Positions 20,401 to 35,557 of a stretch of DNA of 38,935 nucleotides are shown here, piece by piece; the first letter of the stretch is position 1; every line of letters begins with the position of its first letter. The position numbers and the translations under genes were made by a program. The notes under the pieces were generated by a model, which saw nothing but the letters and a program-made list of their open reading frames with translations, had not been told where the DNA came from and searched no databases. The stretch lies in IMG/VR virus record IMGVR_UViG_3300027820_000555, positions 1 through 38,935 of that record; one strand, given 5' to 3'. The stretch is from a virus. Taxonomy: Duplodnaviria > Caudoviricetes.

Positions 20401-20958
20401 TTATAAAAAAAGTTTATTATAGTCGTCAAAGGCCTGTTCTATCCGCTTTTCCACATACTTAGGCTGGTGCCGATAGGTGCGTGCGATGCGACCCACGGTG
20501 AAGTCGTAAATGGCAAAGTCCGAGGCCATAGCGCGCGCCTCGCTGTGATCCCACCATTGATGGTATTGGGTGATGAGCTGCTGCTGCCTCTCGGTGAAAT
20601 CCAGCAGGGCGCGGGCAGACGGTATGCGCAGATAAGATGGCGTTTTGATATCTACATCACGGGCAACGAAATACCAGCCCATATAGATTTCATCGGCGGC
20701 GGCCAGCAGCTTTTCTTCAAGCCATCCCTTCTTGCGGGCAGAGACACGCCCGCTGGGCGTCTTCCTTTGATCCCTAACAGTGCCCCATGTCGATGGGTCT
20801 TTCTCGTTATACATACGGTGACGGTCCTCATGGCGGGCAATCAGTTCGTCACGTATGATGGCATTAACGCGGGCACGCTCTCGCGCCTGGCTTTGCAACA
20901 CGATGTTGATACGGTCCTGGGATTGGGTGGCTTCATGCTGCATGGTCATCTCCATCAA
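20401..20958 (-). CDS. Late-gene regulator (Q-like antiterminator/activator)
   Basis: Last early gene, followed by a promoter-terminator pair; C-terminal HTH-like segment. Confidence 0.55.
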   Translation of the reverse strand: MMEMTMQHEATQSQDRINIVLQSQARERARVNAIIRDELIARHEDRHRMYNEKDPSTWGTVRDQRKTPSGRVSARKKGWLEEKLLAAADEIYMGWYFVARDVDIKTPSYLRIPSARALLDFTERQQQLITQYHQWWDHSEARAMASDFAIYDFTVGRIARTYRHQPKYVEKRIEQAFDDYNKLFL

Positions 20959-21893
20959 GCGATTGCGGTTGAGGCAGGGGCACGGGACAGCCCGAATTCA
21001 GCCAACACGGAATCACTGACCAGGGTGTCAGGATGGTCCAGGCGCGGCCCCCACGCTTCCGGCCAGTCCCCATCTCCCTGGTACAGAGATACGGCGGCAC
21101 GCTGGCCCTCAACTGTCCCCAGTGGATGGGTGCACTTGGTAGGCACAGCATCCAGAAACGCAGCCCGGAACCAAGCTATCCGCTTTCCCTTTCCGGCACC
21201 ATGTTGGCACTTGTTGCGCACCAGATCGATAATCTGCTTTGCGTTGAAGCCAAGCTCCATCCACTCCTGAACTTGGCTCACCAGGGCATGCGCGTTCAGC
21301 TGGAATGGGCAACCAATGATGCCGAGAAGTTCACTTGCTGTGGTGTAAGCCTCCTCGTACGTGCGCGCATGCGCATTGCTAGCTAGCTCTTTGATGGTTC
21401 TATTATATTGATGTGATCGTCCGTCACATCGGATGTGATCCTCCGTCACATCTGGTTGTGACTGTCCGTCACATCGGGTGTGACTGTCGATCACATCTGA
21501 ATTTCCGCCGTTGTTCTCTTCTTGTTCCTGTCCGTTGTGACTATCCGTCACATCTGAATTTCCGCCGTTTTTCGCACCCTCATCATCTGTCGAAGGATCA
21601 ATATCAACAACTGAAAACGGAGAATTTTTTGCTAAATTGAGCTGATAAGTGTTGTGAATTTTCATCCCGAAACGACGCCCCTGACGCACCATCAACAGAT
21701 CATGTTCCACCAGTTTCTGAATGTGCCTGTTGATGGTTTCACGGCTCACACCGCATTCACTGGCCAGCGTCGATTGCTTTGGCCATGACACGCCATTGTC
21801 ATTCGCCTGGTCGGCCAATTTGATAAGCAAAAGTTTGGAAATCGCGGATGGGGTAGGCTGCTTCCATGCCCATGCGAGACAAATATTACTCAT
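20955..21893 (-). CDS. Replication initiator (lambda O-like, N-terminal winged HTH)
   Basis: KLLLIKLADQAN..G.SWPKQSTLASECGVSRETINRHI; internal iterons. Confidence 0.88.
   Translation of the reverse strand: MSNICLAWAWKQPTPSAISKLLLIKLADQANDNGVSWPKQSTLASECGVSRETINRHIQKLVEHDLLMVRQGRRFGMKIHNTYQLNLAKNSPFSVVDIDPSTDDEGAKNGGNSDVTDSHNGQEQEENNGGNSDVIDSHTRCDGQSQPDVTEDHIRCDGRSHQYNRTIKELASNAHARTYEEAYTTASELLGIIGCPFQLNAHALVSQVQEWMELGFNAKQIIDLVRNKCQHGAGKGKRIAWFRAAFLDAVPTKCTHPLGTVEGQRAAVSLYQGDGDWPEAWGPRLDHPDTLVSDSVLAEFGLSRAPASTAIA
21401..21552. repeat. Replication origin iterons, 5 x TGTGA-N7-TCACA
   Basis: Copies start at 21412, 21434, 21457, 21479 and 21536; AT-rich patch at 21401-21410. Confidence 0.85.
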
Positions 21894-23329
21894 TACAAAA
21901 CCTCATCAAATGAAAATGCTGAACAAGGCATATAGGCGGTCACATCGCGCGCGCCGCCGGAACCATGACGGTTCTTCGCCATGATGATCTTGCACTTGTT
22001 CTTCACGCGGTCGTATTCCCCCTGCCAAGCGGCATATCCGCCCGGATCAGCTATTTTATCCGGCTGGTTATTTTTCAGGTAATAAGCGTGGCGATACAGG
22101 AAAAGAACGGAATCAGCGTCTTGCTCAATGGCACCAGAGTCCCGCAGGTCAGAAAGCATCGGCTGCTTATCATCTCGGCTCTCAACGCCCCTGGAAAGCT
22201 GTGAGAGCGCGATCACGCACACATCAAGCTCCCTCGCCATGGATTTAAGGTTTTTGGTTATCTGCGCAACCTCCTGGACCTTATTGCCCTTATAGGAGCC
22301 ATCATGCATAAGTCCGATATAATCGACGATAACAACGTCTAAGCTTTTGCCCTGCGCCTTAAGCGAACGCTTCCAGCGGCGCAGCTCAGAACGCACACGG
22401 GCGACCGTGGGCTCACTACGTGACCAGATACGGATGGGCAGGTCCGATAGATAGTTATTCGCATCCCTCAACTCAGGAATGCGCACCTCGGGCACCTTGC
22501 CAGTGCGGAAGTCCTGATATTCAATCCGCTTGCCGCGATGATAACAGATTTCAGACAGCATCCGATTTGTAAGCTGTTCCTCCGACATCTCGAATGAGAA
22601 CAACGCCACGCCATGCCCGTTATCGGCAATGCCCCGCGCCAATGACGTGGCAAAGGCCGACTTACCCATGCCAGGGCGGCCAGCGACAATCACAAGGTCG
22701 GTGTGATATAGCCCGCCACATAATTCACTCAGCCACGGCATATTGGTCGGTGACATGCCTGGGACAGCGCCTTCGCGGTAAATCGCCTCAAGCCGCTGGA
22801 TAGACATCTCACCCGCTTCACCTGCGGTTACAGACCCCTGGTCCGCATCACCAAATAACGACTGTATGGCCTCTTCGGCGTCGGTTGCGATTTTGTGCGC
22901 TTGCAGATCCGCATCAGGCTGGGTGGCGGCACCCTTAATGTCATCACAAACACCGACAAGGCCACGCAGGCGATAAAGCTCAATAAGCGATTGCGCATAG
23001 TCACGCACTGCATAAGGCAAGGCCATGCCTCCCAGACCTGCAAGATAAGCCTGCGCGCCGCCAACTTGGTTCATCGCTTCATCATGCTGAAAATAAGCCC
23101 GCAGCGTAATAGGCGTTGCTGACTTCCCCTGGTCACGGAAACTCAAACAAGCGTCAAATATGCGCTTATGGACGCCCTCATAGAAATGCTCTGACTGCAA
23201 CTCGACGGGCACTGCGTCAAGGGCCTTGGGGTTCATCAGAATAGACCCAAGCACGGATTGCTCCATCTCAAGGTTGATGAGAGGGCCAATGGCTTCCTCA
23301 TCTGAAATCTGTTGGTTTTCCAGCGTCAT
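21893..23329 (-). CDS. dnaB: Replicative DNA helicase, DnaB family
   Basis: GRPGMGKS, FSFEMS, VDYIGLM, LSQLSR, DLRDSGAIEQDAD and KNRHG. Confidence 0.97.
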   Translation of the reverse strand: MTLENQQISDEEAIGPLINLEMEQSVLGSILMNPKALDAVPVELQSEHFYEGVHKRIFDACLSFRDQGKSATPITLRAYFQHDEAMNQVGGAQAYLAGLGGMALPYAVRDYAQSLIELYRLRGLVGVCDDIKGAATQPDADLQAHKIATDAEEAIQSLFGDADQGSVTAGEAGEMSIQRLEAIYREGAVPGMSPTNMPWLSELCGGLYHTDLVIVAGRPGMGKSAFATSLARGIADNGHGVALFSFEMSEEQLTNRMLSEICYHRGKRIEYQDFRTGKVPEVRIPELRDANNYLSDLPIRIWSRSEPTVARVRSELRRWKRSLKAQGKSLDVVIVDYIGLMHDGSYKGNKVQEVAQITKNLKSMARELDVCVIALSQLSRGVESRDDKQPMLSDLRDSGAIEQDADSVLFLYRHAYYLKNNQPDKIADPGGYAAWQGEYDRVKNKCKIIMAKNRHGSGGARDVTAYMPCSAFSFDEVL

Positions 23330-23481
23330 GGGGCAACCTCCATAAACACTTCAAGGGCGCGCTTGGCTGCAAGACCGTCTTCCAGCTTTAATGTCTGTTG
23401 AGCCTTAAGCGACGCCTGCACAAATTCATCCCACTGTTCGGCTTTCAAGTCTTCACTTTGGACGGCTGTATCGTTGCTCAT
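23326..23481 (-). CDS. Hypothetical 51-aa protein
   Basis: Translated by hand, MSNDTAVQSEDLKAEQWDEFVQ...; AAGGA RBS; ATGA overlap with dnaB. Confidence 0.65.
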   Translation of the reverse strand: MSNDTAVQSEDLKAEQWDEFVQASLKAQQTLKLEDGLAAKRALEVFMEVAP

Positions 23482-23586
23482 AGCTTTATCCTTCTTAAGA
23501 CTGGGCCCACGGGCGTTGCCGGGGCATTATGGGATTGTGGGGGGATTTGGCTTTTGCCAGCGGTGGGGAAAAGAAAGAATATCATC

Positions 23587-23805
23587 TCAACCCCTTTCCA
23601 AACCATAGACCGATGCAGCCCGTTGAATCAGCGTGTCGGCTTCTGCAATGGCATTGAGTTCAAAGTCGGTCAGGGGCTGCTCATCGTCGCTGATGCGGGC
23701 CAAATACCTCTTGGCCTCAGCCACAAGCGTGCGTGCCTCGGCGCTTTTGAAGATTTCATTGAAACAGGTGCATGTGGATGCACGGGGAGTGTCGTCTGCC
23801 AGCAT
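23587..23805 (-). CDS. Hypothetical 72-aa protein controlled by the C4-like RNA
   Basis: GGAG RBS overlapping the antisense target CCAACGG; the frame is also open upstream to 24093/24105 (Ash-like). Confidence 0.6.
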   Translation of the reverse strand: MLADDTPRASTCTCFNEIFKSAEARTLVAEAKRYLARISDDEQPLTDFELNAIAEADTLIQRAASVYGLERG

Positions 23806-23864
23806 ATGGGCATCTCCGTTGGCTAAGTTGTTAAACCCAACCACTGGAGGTTCTACACTCCTGG

Positions 23865-23946
23865 TGGCCGGACCGATACACGGGTAGAACACCACCGGAT
23901 GCTCCCAACGGTAAGCATTCCGGCGGAACCATGACCGGCCCGACCA
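23865..23946 (-). ncRNA. C4/CI-type antisense RNA no. 1
   Basis: Closing stem TGGTCGGGCCGGT/ATCGGTCCGGCCA; seeds CCGTTGG and GTTCTAC have complements upstream (24000-24027) and downstream (23816-23856). Confidence 0.75.
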
Positions 23947-24058
23947 TAAGGAAAGCTGAAACGCCCAATAAAAAACGCGCTTTAAGAGGCGCGCGGACGC
24001 CGTTGGAACATCACGGCGGTGTTCTACTCCCGCCGCAGTGATTTTGCACTGCTGGTCC

Positions 24059-24087
24059 ACCATGCGTCGATTTTGGGCGTATGTCAA
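24059..24087 (-). promoter_or_regulatory. Promoter for C4-like module 1
   Basis: TTGACA-N17-CATGGT on the minus strand. Confidence 0.6.
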
Positions 24088-24154
24088 CATCATGCGGCAC
24101 TCCATGCTTTGAAGCGCGCGGCACAGTTTATGGGATAAATTGTTTCATAATTAA

Positions 24155-24182
24155 TTGACATTTGTAGCTTAAAAGCTACATT
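24155..24182 (+). promoter_or_regulatory. Toxin-antitoxin promoter with palindromic operator
   Basis: TTGACA-N16-TACATT overlapped by TGTAGCTT-AA-AAGCTACA (24163-24180). Confidence 0.75.
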
Positions 24183-24233
24183 AGACAGATAAATTTTTAC
24201 TGTTAATAACGATAAGAGAGGCCGCCCAGCGCC

Positions 24234-24524
24234 ATGATAGTGGTTGAAAAAACAGAAGAATTTCAAAAATGGCACCTGGGCCTTAAAGACAAAACAAGCA
24301 AGACGCGGATAACCGCGCGCCTGGACCGTGTTGAACAAGGAAACCTGGGCGATTTTAAGAACCTTAAAGATGGCCTTTACGAACTTCGGTTTACCTTTGG
24401 TGGCGGTATCAGGGTTTATTACACCTGGCGCGGCGATGAAATCGTCTTGCTGCTGGCCGGAGGAAACAAGTCGGACCAAGAAGCCGACATTGCTCGTGCA
24501 AAAGAAATGATCTCGGAACTCTAG
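24234..24524 (+). CDS. Type II toxin, RelE/ParE superfamily (addiction module killer, HI1419-like)
   Basis: GNLGDFK.L.DGLYELR..FGGGIRVY...LLLAGGNKS.Q..DI..A. Confidence 0.93.
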   Translation: MIVVEKTEEFQKWHLGLKDKTSKTRITARLDRVEQGNLGDFKNLKDGLYELRFTFGGGIRVYYTWRGDEIVLLLAGGNKSDQEADIARAKEMISEL

Positions 24525-24533
24525 GAGCGTATC

Positions 24534-24875
24534 ATGAGTAAACTTAAAACGACTAAATGGGATGCCGCAGACAGTATTGAGGATTTCGAGGATGCCTATC
24601 TGTACCTTGAAGCCACTCTTGAAGACACGCACGGCGACCGCGCTGCCATCATGAAGGCGCTTGGCAATATTGCGCGCTCCAAAGGCATGGCCGAGGTTGC
24701 GGAAAAAACCGGCCTTAGACGCGAAACGCTGTATCGCATGCTTTCCGAAGAGGGCAATCCGACCATTGATAACTTTATCAAGGTTTTGGCCGCCTTCGGC
24801 ATTGAAATGCGCTTTGCGCCCTCCGTTAGGACACGCCAGCGCCTCGACTTGAGCGGACAGGCTGCGGTGGCTTAA
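24534..24875 (+). CDS. Antitoxin (addiction module antidote, HI1420-like HTH)
   Basis: WDAAD...ALGNIARSKGMAEVAEKTGLRRETLYRMLSEEGNPT. Confidence 0.93.
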   Translation: MSKLKTTKWDAADSIEDFEDAYLYLEATLEDTHGDRAAIMKALGNIARSKGMAEVAEKTGLRRETLYRMLSEEGNPTIDNFIKVLAAFGIEMRFAPSVRTRQRLDLSGQAAVA

Positions 24876-24878
24876 ACC

Positions 24879-25157
24879 ATGGAAGCTTCTGCTGAATCCA
24901 TTCTTGCGGCTGTACGAAGCGGCAAAATGGAAACCTTCCCGCAATCCATCGTTGACGACATGATTAACGGCGTCCACCCGATCCGCAGCTTTCGCGAGTA
25001 CCGGGGGCTTACGGCCGATCAGCTTGGCAACGCGGTTGGCATATCGGGCGCCTATGTGCGTCAAATTGAGACCGGCAAGCGCGAAGGAAAGGCGCAAGTG
25101 ATTAAAGCCATCTCTGACGCGCTCAACGTTGATATGGAGCTTTTGATTGAAGATTAA
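24879..25157 (+). CDS. XRE-family HTH protein, third gene of the TA cassette
   Basis: HPIRSFREYRGLTADQLGNAVGISGAYVRQIETGKREG; starts 3 nt after the antidote stop. Confidence 0.85.
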   Translation: MEASAESILAAVRSGKMETFPQSIVDDMINGVHPIRSFREYRGLTADQLGNAVGISGAYVRQIETGKREGKAQVIKAISDALNVDMELLIED

Positions 25158-25336
25158 GATCGTTCCAGGGCGCGACATTGACAGCCCACCACCGGATGAC
25201 GCCATGCTGGAAAACATCAAGAAGGCCCAGCGGGGCGTCATACCAAAGCCCAAGCCACGACCATCATGATGATGACGATATATACCGCGACACAATGTCG
25301 GGGTATATACCGAACGAGATATCGAGGCAGTCGTCA

Positions 25337-25951
25337 TCATGCGGCGGCCTCTTTTGCTTTAAACTTTCCAACCTGATTGCCCCATGCATCCCAACCGGGC
25401 CAGCGCTGGCGCGCGAATAACTCGACATAAGGGCCGTTCAACAATTGCTCTATGCGGTCATAGACGCAATCGGGCTTACGGCTGTGTTCGCGGCGGGGCT
25501 CAAAGATAGGCTGGCGCACGCTGGCGCTTTGACGCTTTGGCTTGCCACGGGTGGCCAATAGGCACGCTTCGGTGTTGGACCGGGTCCAATAGCCCATGCC
25601 GCAGAACAATGAGCTCTCATCGACAAACAGGCGGTAATTGTCGCCCTTCATCCAATTAAAGCCGCAAGTCTTATATGTAAAACCCCAGGCATCAATCACG
25701 CGCATTGCGTCTGGCAACGTCGGCCAGGTCATCCACAGGAACAAAGCACAATCATCCGCCGCCAATTCGCTTACAGGCAAGGCGCAGATATCATCAATGG
25801 TCATGGTGCTGTAATGTGATTCAGCACTCCGATCCTGGCCCTTTTTGGACCAGGTCTTGAACGACCATGCGGGATCGGCATAGACGACCTGATAACCCCG
25901 TTTCCGAAGCCCAGCGAAAGGATGGTTGCCTGTTAAAACTGAGCTATCCAT
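25337..25951 (-). CDS. MT-A70 family N6-adenine methyltransferase
   Basis: VVYADPAW, HYSTM, ALFLW, WGFTYKT, REHSRKP and ELFAR; start chosen from the RBS. Confidence 0.93.
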   Translation of the reverse strand: MDSSVLTGNHPFAGLRKRGYQVVYADPAWSFKTWSKKGQDRSAESHYSTMTIDDICALPVSELAADDCALFLWMTWPTLPDAMRVIDAWGFTYKTCGFNWMKGDNYRLFVDESSLFCGMGYWTRSNTEACLLATRGKPKRQSASVRQPIFEPRREHSRKPDCVYDRIEQLLNGPYVELFARQRWPGWDAWGNQVGKFKAKEAAA

Positions 25952-26234
25952 TGACCTTCTCATGCTTGATGCGCGACGCCTTGCGCCATGGCACGGTGTC
26001 AACGGCATTCAACGGGCCCGATAAAACACCCTCTAACCGGGCGGTTTCGTGGCGCTCCACCTCCATTTCGCATACTGTCTTCTTGGCTGCCGCGCGGGCC
26101 CAATGCCGCCATGCTTCTTTGGCGGCTTCATGGGCTTTTCGCAGTTCTTTCCCCGCCTGCTTCATATTGGCCTTGGCCTGGGCAAGATCATCAGGAATCA
26201 ATCGATCAGTCATTGAGAGCCCCTTTACGCACAT
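25944..26234 (-). CDS. Hypothetical coiled-coil protein
   Basis: Fills the operon with overlaps at both ends; start may be the second Met. Confidence 0.55.
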   Translation of the reverse strand: MCVKGLSMTDRLIPDDLAQAKANMKQAGKELRKAHEAAKEAWRHWARAAAKKTVCEMEVERHETARLEGVLSGPLNAVDTVPWRKASRIKHEKVNG

Positions 26235-27809: not shown

Positions 27810-27886
27810 AGGGCTATCCTTTCCGTTTTGATTTAATGATTGTGACCTTGCGATAGGCCGGATTGTCGTGGGTGATTACCATCCCC

Positions 27887-28366: not shown

Positions 28367-28693
28367 CTCGAAAACCTTATAAATTTCCCGAAGTTATAAC
28401 GTGCATCCCAGCGATGCCGCCCTTAGCTTGGGTGCTATGACCACACAGGACCTTGATGAATTGATAAATAGAACCCACCAGCATCCCCACATGTGCACAC
28501 GCACGCGTAAAGGGGTGGCCGGGGTGCCGGGGCGACATGCTTGTGTGGACGTCGCCCCGGCAAGCGCTGGATCGATCAATGGGGGAAAAGATCGTAAGCG
28601 CATCCAGCGCTGGAAAAAGAACGGCGGGGGCAATAAAAGCTTTGGGAAAACCCCCGCCTATGCGGGGATCAGGTCCATCCCGCAATTCGATAG

Positions 28694-28780
28694 TGGTGCC
28701 TGCGGCCGGGATCGAACCAGCAAGGGCCAAAGCCCGTCGGGGCTTAAACCCGATGCGTTTACCATTTTCACCACGCAGGC
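28694..28780 (-). tRNA. tRNA-Leu, anticodon TAA
   Basis: 87 nt; acceptor GCCTGCG/CGCAGGC, anticodon arm TCGGG-TTTAAGC-CCCGA, long variable arm, GGTTCGA, encoded ACCA. Confidence 0.95.
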
Positions 28781-28789
28781 GATTAAATG

Positions 28790-28876
28790 TGGTCCCCCTG
28801 GTTGGACTCGAACCAACACAGCAATAAAGCCGCCGGAACCTAAACCCGGTGCGTCTACCATTTCCGCCACAGAGGG
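28790..28876 (-). tRNA. tRNA-Leu, anticodon TAG
   Basis: 87 nt; acceptor CCCTCTG/CAGGGGG, anticodon arm CCGGG-TTTAGGT-TCCGG, long variable arm, encoded ACCA. Confidence 0.95.
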
Positions 28877-28885
28877 TAACTTGAT

Positions 28886-28960
28886 TGGTTGCAGCGGCGG
28901 GATTCGAACCCGCGACCTCTTGGTTATGAGCCAAGCGAGCTACCACTGCTCTACGCTGCT
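28886..28960 (-). tRNA. tRNA with CAT anticodon, initiator (fMet)-like
   Basis: 75 nt; A1:A72 mismatch, G2:C71, C3:G70, A11:T24, arm CTTGG-CTCATAA-CCAAG, encoded ACCA. Confidence 0.9.
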
Positions 28961-29065
28961 TCAAGAAAAAAGCGGCCACACGCTTGCCACATGGCAGATA
29001 ACCACCATGGGCCAGCGCGTGACCAAGTTTCGGGTGAAAACCCGAGGAAGATACGAAAAACCCAC

Positions 29066-29284
29066 TCATGCGAGCGCCCGCCCTAAAAACGCAACAAGGA
29101 AAAGGCAGGGCCCGCCTACGCCAAACAACAATACAAAGCATTTACGCAACGCAGCCCGAAACGCAGGGCTGTCATTCAAATCCCGCCTGACATCCTTGGC
29201 CGCCAGCCAGATCATGAAAGCGATCAAGGCAAACATCACAATGCCCCCAAGGCTGTGCAAAGATATAGGTCCACTGGCGTCCAT
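29066..29284 (-). CDS. Small membrane protein, first ORF after PR
   Basis: GGAG RBS; two hydrophobic segments; no HTH. Confidence 0.6.
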   Translation of the reverse strand: MDASGPISLHSLGGIVMFALIAFMIWLAAKDVRRDLNDSPAFRAALRKCFVLLFGVGGPCLFLVAFLGRALA

Positions 29285-34750: not shown

Positions 34751-34768
34751 CCCATGCACGCCGCTGTC

Positions 34769-34797
34769 TTGACATATGAACGGAATGCGACCATGGT
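34769..34797 (+). promoter_or_regulatory. Promoter of the C4/antirepressor module
   Basis: TTGACA-N17-CATGGT; the spacer contains GAAC-N7-GACC (34778-34792). Confidence 0.65.
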
Positions 34798-34889
34798 TGG
34801 AGTTGGAGCTCACAACTCTAACAAGCGGATGGTCGCGCCGTTATTGCGGCTATTTTCATGCCTGGATTCTGTCCAGGCATCCCGTCTTT

Positions 34890-34965
34890 TGGCGGGAGTC
34901 CGGGTAATACAAGACCCTTCGGGGGAATATCCGGGCCTGTCTTGTTCAGGTGTGAACTCCCGCCA
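34890..34965 (+). ncRNA. C4/CI-type antisense RNA no. 2
   Basis: Closing stem TGGCGGGAGT/ACTCCCGCCA with an internal CCC-TTCG-GGG hairpin; seeds CTTGTT and TGTGA have complements upstream (34810-34825) and downstream (34977-35016). Confidence 0.82.
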
Positions 34966-35026
34966 CCAGGCGGCTCTCACAGGCTCTCTGAGTGGCGCAT
35001 ATAAACGCCAAACAAGAGGGCTTGTT

Positions 35027-35557
35027 ATGACCGCTAAATCAAAAGACCTTGTCTTCCAAGGCACTGAAATCAAAACCATAGAACGCAATGGAGAGCGTTG
35101 GTTGACGGGCTTGCAAATTGCAAGCGCGTTAGAATTTGCCAACCCACGTGCCGACATCGCAAACATCTACCGTCGCCACAAAGGCGAATTCACCAGAGAT
35201 ATGACGGACCTGATTAAGCAGGGGCGCACCAGGGTGCGGGCATTCAGCCCGAGGGGGGCTTGGCTCATTGCCATGTTTGCCCGCACCCCGCGTGCTGCTG
35301 CGTTCCGCCATTGGGTGCTGGACGTACTGGAAGGCAAAGAGGGCCCCAGCGCCCAGGCATTAGAGCGCGCCTTTGAACACGGGTACAACACGTGCAAGGC
35401 GCATCAAATGATACGGGACGCCCGGTCGATGATTGACAGCATAGACTTAGGCCCAAGCCCGATGACGCGGGAAGACGTAGGCAAAGCCTTCGACGCCTCC
35501 CTCCTTCTCCTAACCGCCGACAGCATATCCCTAAAACCGAAAGGCCAAATCCAATGA
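35027..35557 (+). CDS. Bro-N domain antirepressor-like protein
   Basis: LVFQG..I..IERNGERWLT...IASAL.F......I..IYRRH..EF...MT...RAFSPRGAWLIAMFARTPRAAAFRHWVLD. Confidence 0.88.
   Translation: MTAKSKDLVFQGTEIKTIERNGERWLTGLQIASALEFANPRADIANIYRRHKGEFTRDMTDLIKQGRTRVRAFSPRGAWLIAMFARTPRAAAFRHWVLDVLEGKEGPSAQALERAFEHGYNTCKAHQMIRDARSMIDSIDLGPSPMTREDVGKAFDASLLLLTADSISLKPKGQIQ

Follow-up and report, generated by a model that had tools for sequence, protein, structure and literature searches.

Why is a 416-codon frame free of stops on the strand opposite a counter-oriented gene cassette in a temperate phage, and why is it joined by overlapping start and stop codons to the lytic genes on both sides? The window, by which we mean the whole stretch of 38,935 nt that was analysed, is a complete 38.9-kb temperate phage record with integrase, repressor-like, CII-like, replication, head and tail genes. 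Its proteins were also found on a 1.17-Mb contig, which indicates an integrated prophage, and from its GapR-family gene we take the host to be alphaproteobacterial, in line with the range of that family.

The frame, here called the bridge ORF, lies in the early operon (Table 1). With a probability of about 0.7, we interpret it as a stop-free frame kept by selection for the act of translation, its protein likely being incidental. Because no close relative was found, selection at the window locus is argued by analogy, from a comparison with unrelated phages.

Table 1. Coordinates (positions in the window), strand and properties of the features discussed
Feature	Position	Strand	Details
Replication initiator, after DnaB	20955-21893	-	
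DnaB helicase, first essential gene downstream	21893..23329	-	
Linker ORF, eta-like ORF to 51-aa gene	23478..23606	-	42 codons
Eta-like ORF	23587..24093	-	168 codons; starts 6 nt before internal promoter, crosses both RNAs
C4/CI-like RNA, strong stem	23860..23951	-	Rfam 18.8 bits (gathering score 45), E 2.4; fold z -6.7
IsrK/seqA-like RNA	23970..24052	-	Rfam 28.9 bits (gathering score 50), E 9e-4
Internal promoter TTGACA-17-CATGGT, PLE-like, predicted	24059..24087	-	read from sequence; below promoter-scan threshold
Bridge ORF	24090..25340	-	416 codons, exact antisense frame of cassette
Eta-like start / bridge stop, ATGA overlap	24090..24093	-	GGAG 6 nt upstream; 11-nt repeat copy 2 (24088-24098)
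Cassette promoter TTGACA-16-TACATT, predicted	24155..24182	+	promoter scan
RelE/ParE-family toxin, HI1419 type	24234..24524	+	TIGR02683, 116 bits (cut-off 63)
Antitoxin, HI1420 type	24534..24875	+	TIGR02684, 92 bits (cut-off 54); PF21716
XRE-HTH gene	24879..25157	+	phrog_7241 positions 36-121 of 122
Strong stem-loop and terminator-like site	25265..25348	+	core arms 25276-25292 and 25296-25312
Bridge start / MT-A70 stop, ATGA overlap	25337..25340	-	GAGG 8 nt upstream; 11-nt repeat copy 1 (25335-25345)
MT-A70 family methyltransferase, upstream of bridge	25337..26008, likely start 25951	-	Pfam PF05063
Linker ORF	27814-27882	-	22 codons, read by eye
Second bridge, same operon	28377..29069	-	230 codons, from ATGA overlap to 10 nt before CII-like gene
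Bro/Ant antirepressor ORF	34754-35557	+	TTGACA-17-CATGGT at 34769-34797, just after start

The bridge ORF and its junctions

The minus-strand ORF described in the initial annotation is real, with zero internal stops in its 416 codons; across that region, 19 and 22 stops interrupt the remaining two minus frames. As had been claimed, it stays open through the hairpin, the three plus-strand genes and their AT-rich promoter. The three genes do share one frame, and the bridge is its exact antisense frame. Both ATGA couplings are present as well, to the MT-A70 gene at one end and to an in-frame ATG of a 168-aa ORF, below the eta-like ORF, at the other. The two junctions are contained in an exact 11-nt direct repeat. 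Moreover, in 8 of 10 unrelated loci the MT-A70 gene also ends in an overlap of the NTGA type. The earlier view that a shadow origin does not explain both couplings was hence overstated, since the two ATGA motifs come with the repeat and NTGA ends are frequent among MT-A70 genes. Its sound part is that the repeat leaves unexplained why both motifs lie within one open frame.

The rest of the early operon is similarly continuous. From 29284 to 20401 there is no untranslated gap of more than 10 nt when short linker ORFs are included, the 22- and 42-codon linkers filling the remaining gaps. The second bridge crosses three tRNA genes on the same strand; it was open in 0.13% of shuffles and had no PHROG match. 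On the operon strand of the first bridge, no marked C-rich bias of the kind expected of a Rho-loading signal was seen (C/G 0.83–1.35 per 100 nt).

No close relative was found in viral contigs, using the MT-A70 protein, the eta-like ORF, the antitoxin and DnaB as queries and a two-sequence alignment, nor by blastn in phages or plasmids. Seven window proteins had only 1–2 members per 90% cluster in the protein collection. A joint skipping the cassette was absent from the contigs of three DNA runs, two of which contained only low-depth fragments of near-identical DNA and thus carry no weight here. One 2.7x contig (run X2) has A>T at position 24285, which gives a stop in the toxin and leaves the bridge open; it may be an error.

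The cassette

Two of the three plus-strand genes form a type II toxin–antitoxin (TA) pair of the HI1419/HI1420 type, adjacent and with the toxin first, as known from family matches that are both above their cut-offs. The third had also been counted as a TA gene, which did not hold. It lacks the first 35 positions of the PHROG profile and has no adjoining toxin, and is likely, judged from its sequence, an N-terminally shortened orphan antitoxin. An XRE-like third gene behind the TA pair was absent in all 160 homologous loci, which places it outside the TA system.

The promoter part of the cassette has a GC content of 0.40, and an 8-bp inverted repeat within the promoter (24163-24180) is likely the operator. 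At the other end, the hairpin at 25276-25312 has 17-nt arms, and the stretch 25265-25345 folds with a z of -5.2 on the plus strand. This stem-loop is likely the 3' end of the cassette transcript. Behind the XRE gene, a 40-codon ORF in a different frame (25147-25269, plus strand) overlaps another stem-loop at 25196-25241; it is possibly a cargo remnant.

Chance of an open frame

A stop in the bridge frame requires a sense TTA, CTA or TCA codon, and the three genes contain none of these among 28 Leu and 16 Ser codons. Recoding them with the codon use of the operon left the frame open in only 2 of 20,000 cases (about 1e-4), and a fit to 52 reference TA clusters matched for GC3 gave a p of about 0.007 for an open frame. 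The non-coding parts of the cassette, promoter and spacer, were open in dinucleotide shuffles at 0.059 and 0.205. The AT-rich promoter stretch contains four stops in each of the other frames and none in the bridge frame. The length of the bridge and the positions of its ends exceed chance expectation.

Antisense frames at TA loci of other phages and chromosomes

Since no close relative was available, the comparison was made with unrelated phages. The sample consisted of loci with homologous toxins, 80 from chromosomes and 80 from viruses, and 7 of 161 loci were dropped because no antitoxin or toxin was called. A locus was considered embedded if genes on both sides lay on the opposite strand, which applied to the window, to 56 other viral loci and to 31 chromosomal ones, and bridged if one or two tightly coupled ORFs connected its flanks. 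The expectation was obtained by synonymous recoding. Genes in these loci were called with a simple custom predictor, and the loci are partly non-independent.

End-to-end bridging was found in 15 of the 56 other viral loci, which represent seven separate sites. Including the window, this amounts to 16 of 57, against 1.16 expected, whereas none of the 31 chromosomal loci was bridged. A looser chain rule gave 18 of 57 viral loci against 3.4 expected, and 1 of 31 chromosomal loci against 0.5 expected. Yet 41 of the 56 embedded viral cassettes were unbridged. The same was true for 22 of 24 embedded cassettes among 80 metagenome loci; one of the two bridged cassettes was new and the other duplicated L132. 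Together, these viral and metagenome counts mark bridging as a minority state tied to certain sites. The expectation that phages with other inserts keep an open, coupled frame was thus borne out in unrelated phages at certain sites, but not for most cassettes.

Which sites are these? An IsrK, C4 or Xcc1 RNA lay right behind the cassette in seven loci, all of them bridged (including the window, on its sub-threshold matches), compared to 7 of 38 loci without such an RNA. The 45 embedded viral loci that were scanned with Rfam for this count are a non-random sample, and about three of the seven RNA-linked loci would be expected to be bridged by chance because most of them are GC-rich. Most unbridged cassettes adjoin structural genes. 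A restriction of bridging to early operons was rejected, as two bridged sites are late (endolysin/terminase and methylase/tail), which leaves a tendency at most. A count of stops in bridged loci (2 observed, 122 expected) was partly circular and was set aside as evidence.

Several individual loci illustrate the range of arrangements. In L132 (463-2085, minus strand), a 540-codon bridge with couplings of -4 and -1 spans a TA pair and a gene for a 243-aa superinfection-immunity-like protein. In L154 (4622-5628, minus strand), the toxin gene does not share the frame of the antitoxin gene, and the bridge shifts frame through a GTGA overlap inside the toxin before it crosses a C4 RNA. L152 has a 10-nt direct repeat over the stop/start junction at both insert ends (2728 and 4822), as in the window. 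In L212 (3926-5113, minus strand), four counter-oriented genes with a GC3 of 0.36 are spanned by an antisense frame that stays open for 395 codons. This frame lies within a VirB5–VirB8 secretion operon and starts 20 nt past the upstream stop, which suggests that the same design may occur in conjugative elements too.

Empty and filled junctions in two phage families

At the NinB site, 7 of 19 loci were empty alleles in which an upstream 47-aa gene overlaps ninB directly (-4), and three carried a short coupled ORF. The other nine contained one of two TA lineages (46% toxin identity), and in all nine the antisense frame was open and ATGA-coupled to ninB. In three of these filled loci a stop has arisen in the bridge, with an in-frame ATG 3 nt later. 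The NinB proteins themselves are mosaic (L095, L100, L160, L164), with common first ~35 residues and two unrelated bodies, independent of the upstream TA lineage.

One of the two lineages, which is AT-rich, was also bridged at two other sites. Its genes contained CTA in 0 of 55 and TCA in 0 of 45 codons, against A-endings in 59 of 290 codons of the other four-fold boxes, while the flanking primase has TTA as 47 of its 99 Leu codons. At a synonymous divergence of 0.56–0.67, identity was only 48–55% for the antisense protein against 69–84% for the sense proteins. AT-rich cassettes hence avoid TTA, CTA and TCA as the antisense protein drifts. The case of the second AT-rich lineage is weaker, because GGA was also absent from it (0 of 51) and some avoidance of A-endings must therefore be general.

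The second family has a primase followed by a C4 RNA. A long ORF starts from the primase ATGA in 23 of 76 readable loci; the other 53 have no such long ORF coupled to the primase and, being organised differently, were left out. In six empty alleles checked with Rfam, this ORF has 169–179 codons and crosses C4. The frame that starts at the primase ATGA also stays open over the cargo in every one of the 11 filled alleles examined, which carry several unrelated cargoes; in one of these it is divided into three ORFs linked by ATGA overlaps, as in the window. Because these loci are GC-rich, chance openness is 0.26–0.68 each (seven tested), and their value lies in the layout. Both families show the same pattern, in which the neighbouring genes overlap each other directly in empty alleles and alleles filled with different cargo have an open frame from that same junction.

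A putative RNA switch downstream

The ORF that follows the bridge had been said to cross a C4-like RNA. A crossing ORF is indeed present, while the C4 match is weak and is preceded immediately by an IsrK-like match. Within the eta-like ORF the two RNAs appear in the order and on the strand known from P4, with complementary arms, although both score below their Rfam gathering thresholds. The IsrK-like RNA ends in a terminator-like hairpin with a U-run (23975-23994).

The eta-like ORF had no match in Pfam, PHROG or NCBIfam and none in the ESM Atlas. Its single distant homologue matches residues 3–90 only, but retains the residues that spell the boxes of the internal promoter. Matching -35 and -10 boxes occur at the same place in L098, L151 and L157. 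With its own GGAG, the eta-like ORF might initiate without coupling. A hairpin masking its ribosome-binding site was considered and rejected, as it folds no better than shuffles (z -0.5). On the other arm of the phage, the Bro/Ant ORF crosses a match to sRNA-Xcc1 (34891-34972) and forms a second eta-like module.

Alternative explanations

The bridge might simply be a neutral shadow ORF, arising in a host that seldom uses TTA, CTA or TCA, from genes that share a frame by chance and a duplicated junction that gave both ATGA motifs. Such an origin fits with the bridge being the exact antisense frame of real genes and with the 11-nt repeat at both ends; such gene ends occur often both in this phage and in MT-A70 genes, and the ORF was chosen for its length out of a very large scan. 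Antisense openness is also not rare in itself: of 160 homologous toxins, 65 have an open antisense frame, and 16 of 151 TA pairs are open in one frame. However, 13 of these 16 pairs are viral, end-to-end bridging was absent from the chromosomal loci, and only 1 of 17 reference clusters of similar GC3 was stop-free over two genes. Moreover, the frame continues across the AT-rich promoter, where the other frames are closed. We therefore regard a shadow origin as unlikely. Another set of reasons concerns the RNA rather than antitermination: ribosomes on the lytic transcript could limit its pairing with the TA mRNA, shield it from nucleases, or contribute to switching off the TA genes in the lytic phase. 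Complementarity between the two transcripts would extend over about 1.2 kb, and both the bridging at sites without an immunity RNA (7/38) and the near-bridging in the VirB operon of L212 are in line with such a role. Yet such a role leaves unexplained why the hand-over is so precise (-4) at each end, and why there is also a bridge across tRNA genes of the same strand, where there is no antisense gene; we consider it quite improbable.

Alternatively, the bridge might encode a working overprinted protein of the lytic phase, like gene 10 of phage Fc02. Its ribosome-binding site and coupling make translation likely, and the available text on Fc02 reports that an antisense ORF of the early lytic operon gave an exclusion-active protein (PMC9936078). 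The bridge product, however, had no homologue among 4855 candidates and no Pfam, PHROG or NCBIfam family, and the ESM Atlas returned only unnamed matches below 0.9, a low recognition score. This agrees with the initial description of a 416-aa protein resembling nothing recognisable. A single-sequence AlphaFold prediction gave a mean pLDDT of 32, a value that says nothing either way for an input without alignment. In the analogous bridges, purifying selection at the protein level was not found; their antisense protein diverges faster than the sense protein and can be split by a stop and restart. A working protein thus seems very unlikely. The original proposal, that the frame is kept for translation and for handing ribosomes on, is partly supported by the comparison with unrelated phages; translation of the bridge itself is what we infer.

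Comparison with known systems

For the eta and kil genes of satellite phage P4, together with PLE, seqA and the CI RNA, the primary paper is that of Forti et al. (1999). In the part of a later account that was available, P4 eta is coupled to its upstream gene, can be translated from the long transcript only, and prevents termination when translated (PMC10111431). The ORF at 23587-24093 resembles eta in its sequence layout: it is coupled upstream, starts before the predicted internal promoter and crosses seqA/IsrK-like and CI/C4-like RNAs. In contrast, P4 eta is there coupled directly to an alpA homologue (PMC10111431), while in the window 1.25 kb of counter-oriented genes lies in between, linked by an antisense frame. 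Also, the RNAs of the window match weakly and no kil was identified. By this analogy, the bridge would work like P4 eta, yet it differs in being antisense to foreign cargo.

The isrK-orf45-anrP locus of Salmonella Gifsy-1 is similar in having an IsrK-like RNA with a terminator, where translation of the ORF is needed for the next gene; IsrK is named there as a structural homologue of P4 seqA (PMC4825925). Unlike in the window, the isrK transcript there contains the start of orf45, which IsrK activates in trans, and the available text describes neither backwards cargo nor an antisense bridge at the locus (PMC4825925).

The gene 10 / olg1-olg2 case of phage Fc02 is likewise an early-operon ORF on the lytic strand that fully overlaps opposite-strand genes expressed in lysogeny (PMC9936078). 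Unlike the window bridge, for which no homologue was found, gene 10 is conserved among relatives, and in the accessible part of that paper both strands are interpreted as encoding working exclusion proteins (PMC9936078). The olg1/olg2 ORFs of Pseudomonas aeruginosa are also long antisense ORFs inside annotated genes and, according to the text available to us, are translated and under purifying selection as genes (PMC8850804). In the analogous bridges, it instead seems to be openness that is selected; they extend across several genes plus a promoter, with a coupling at each end. A search of openly accessible main texts gave no account of such coupled antisense frames spanning inserted cargo.

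Proposed mechanism and implications

In the lysogen, the cassette would be read from its own plus-strand promoter, while the back-to-back internal promoter would produce the IsrK- and C4-like RNAs, and these would end transcription ahead of dnaB. Upon induction the long early transcript would arrive, and ribosomes leaving the MT-A70 gene could cross the 1.25-kb insert via the bridge and restart at the eta-like ORF. The start of the latter lies upstream of the internal promoter and would hence be present on the long transcript only. Translation over the RNA switch and terminator may then let the polymerase reach dnaB and the initiator, as for P4 eta. From what is established about polarity, ribosomes could plausibly shield the insert from Rho. 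Such cover is likely an added benefit, and it is unseparated here from the hand-over role. A more specific target than Rho polarity exists, however, in the predicted passage of the eta-like ORF across the IsrK-like intrinsic terminator.

The present arrangement likely goes back to a direct stop/start overlap that was split and duplicated by an insertion, as the 11-nt repeat suggests. Inserts would be tolerated only if their antisense strand is open and in register, and later mutations to TTA, CTA or TCA in the cargo would be purged. Possibly, this extends to a general insertion rule, for which we see even odds. Backwards cargo would enter a translation-coupled operon only with an open, coupled antisense frame, so that the opposite strand dictates its codons (no TTA, CTA or TCA). 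The junction before P4-type RNA immunity switches would be a hotspot that takes up cargo repeatedly, subject to this rule, and the frames would form a standing nursery of translated de novo ORFs.

If true, this would account for selection acting on some long shadow ORFs that encode no useful protein, and it would set a limit, readable from sequence, on where defence or TA cargo can lie in phage operons. A base change that is silent for the cargo should then block the replication genes of the phage. Annotators would be warned against discarding such frames as artefacts as well as against naming them as proteins, and the same rule could guide the design of insertions into coupled operons.
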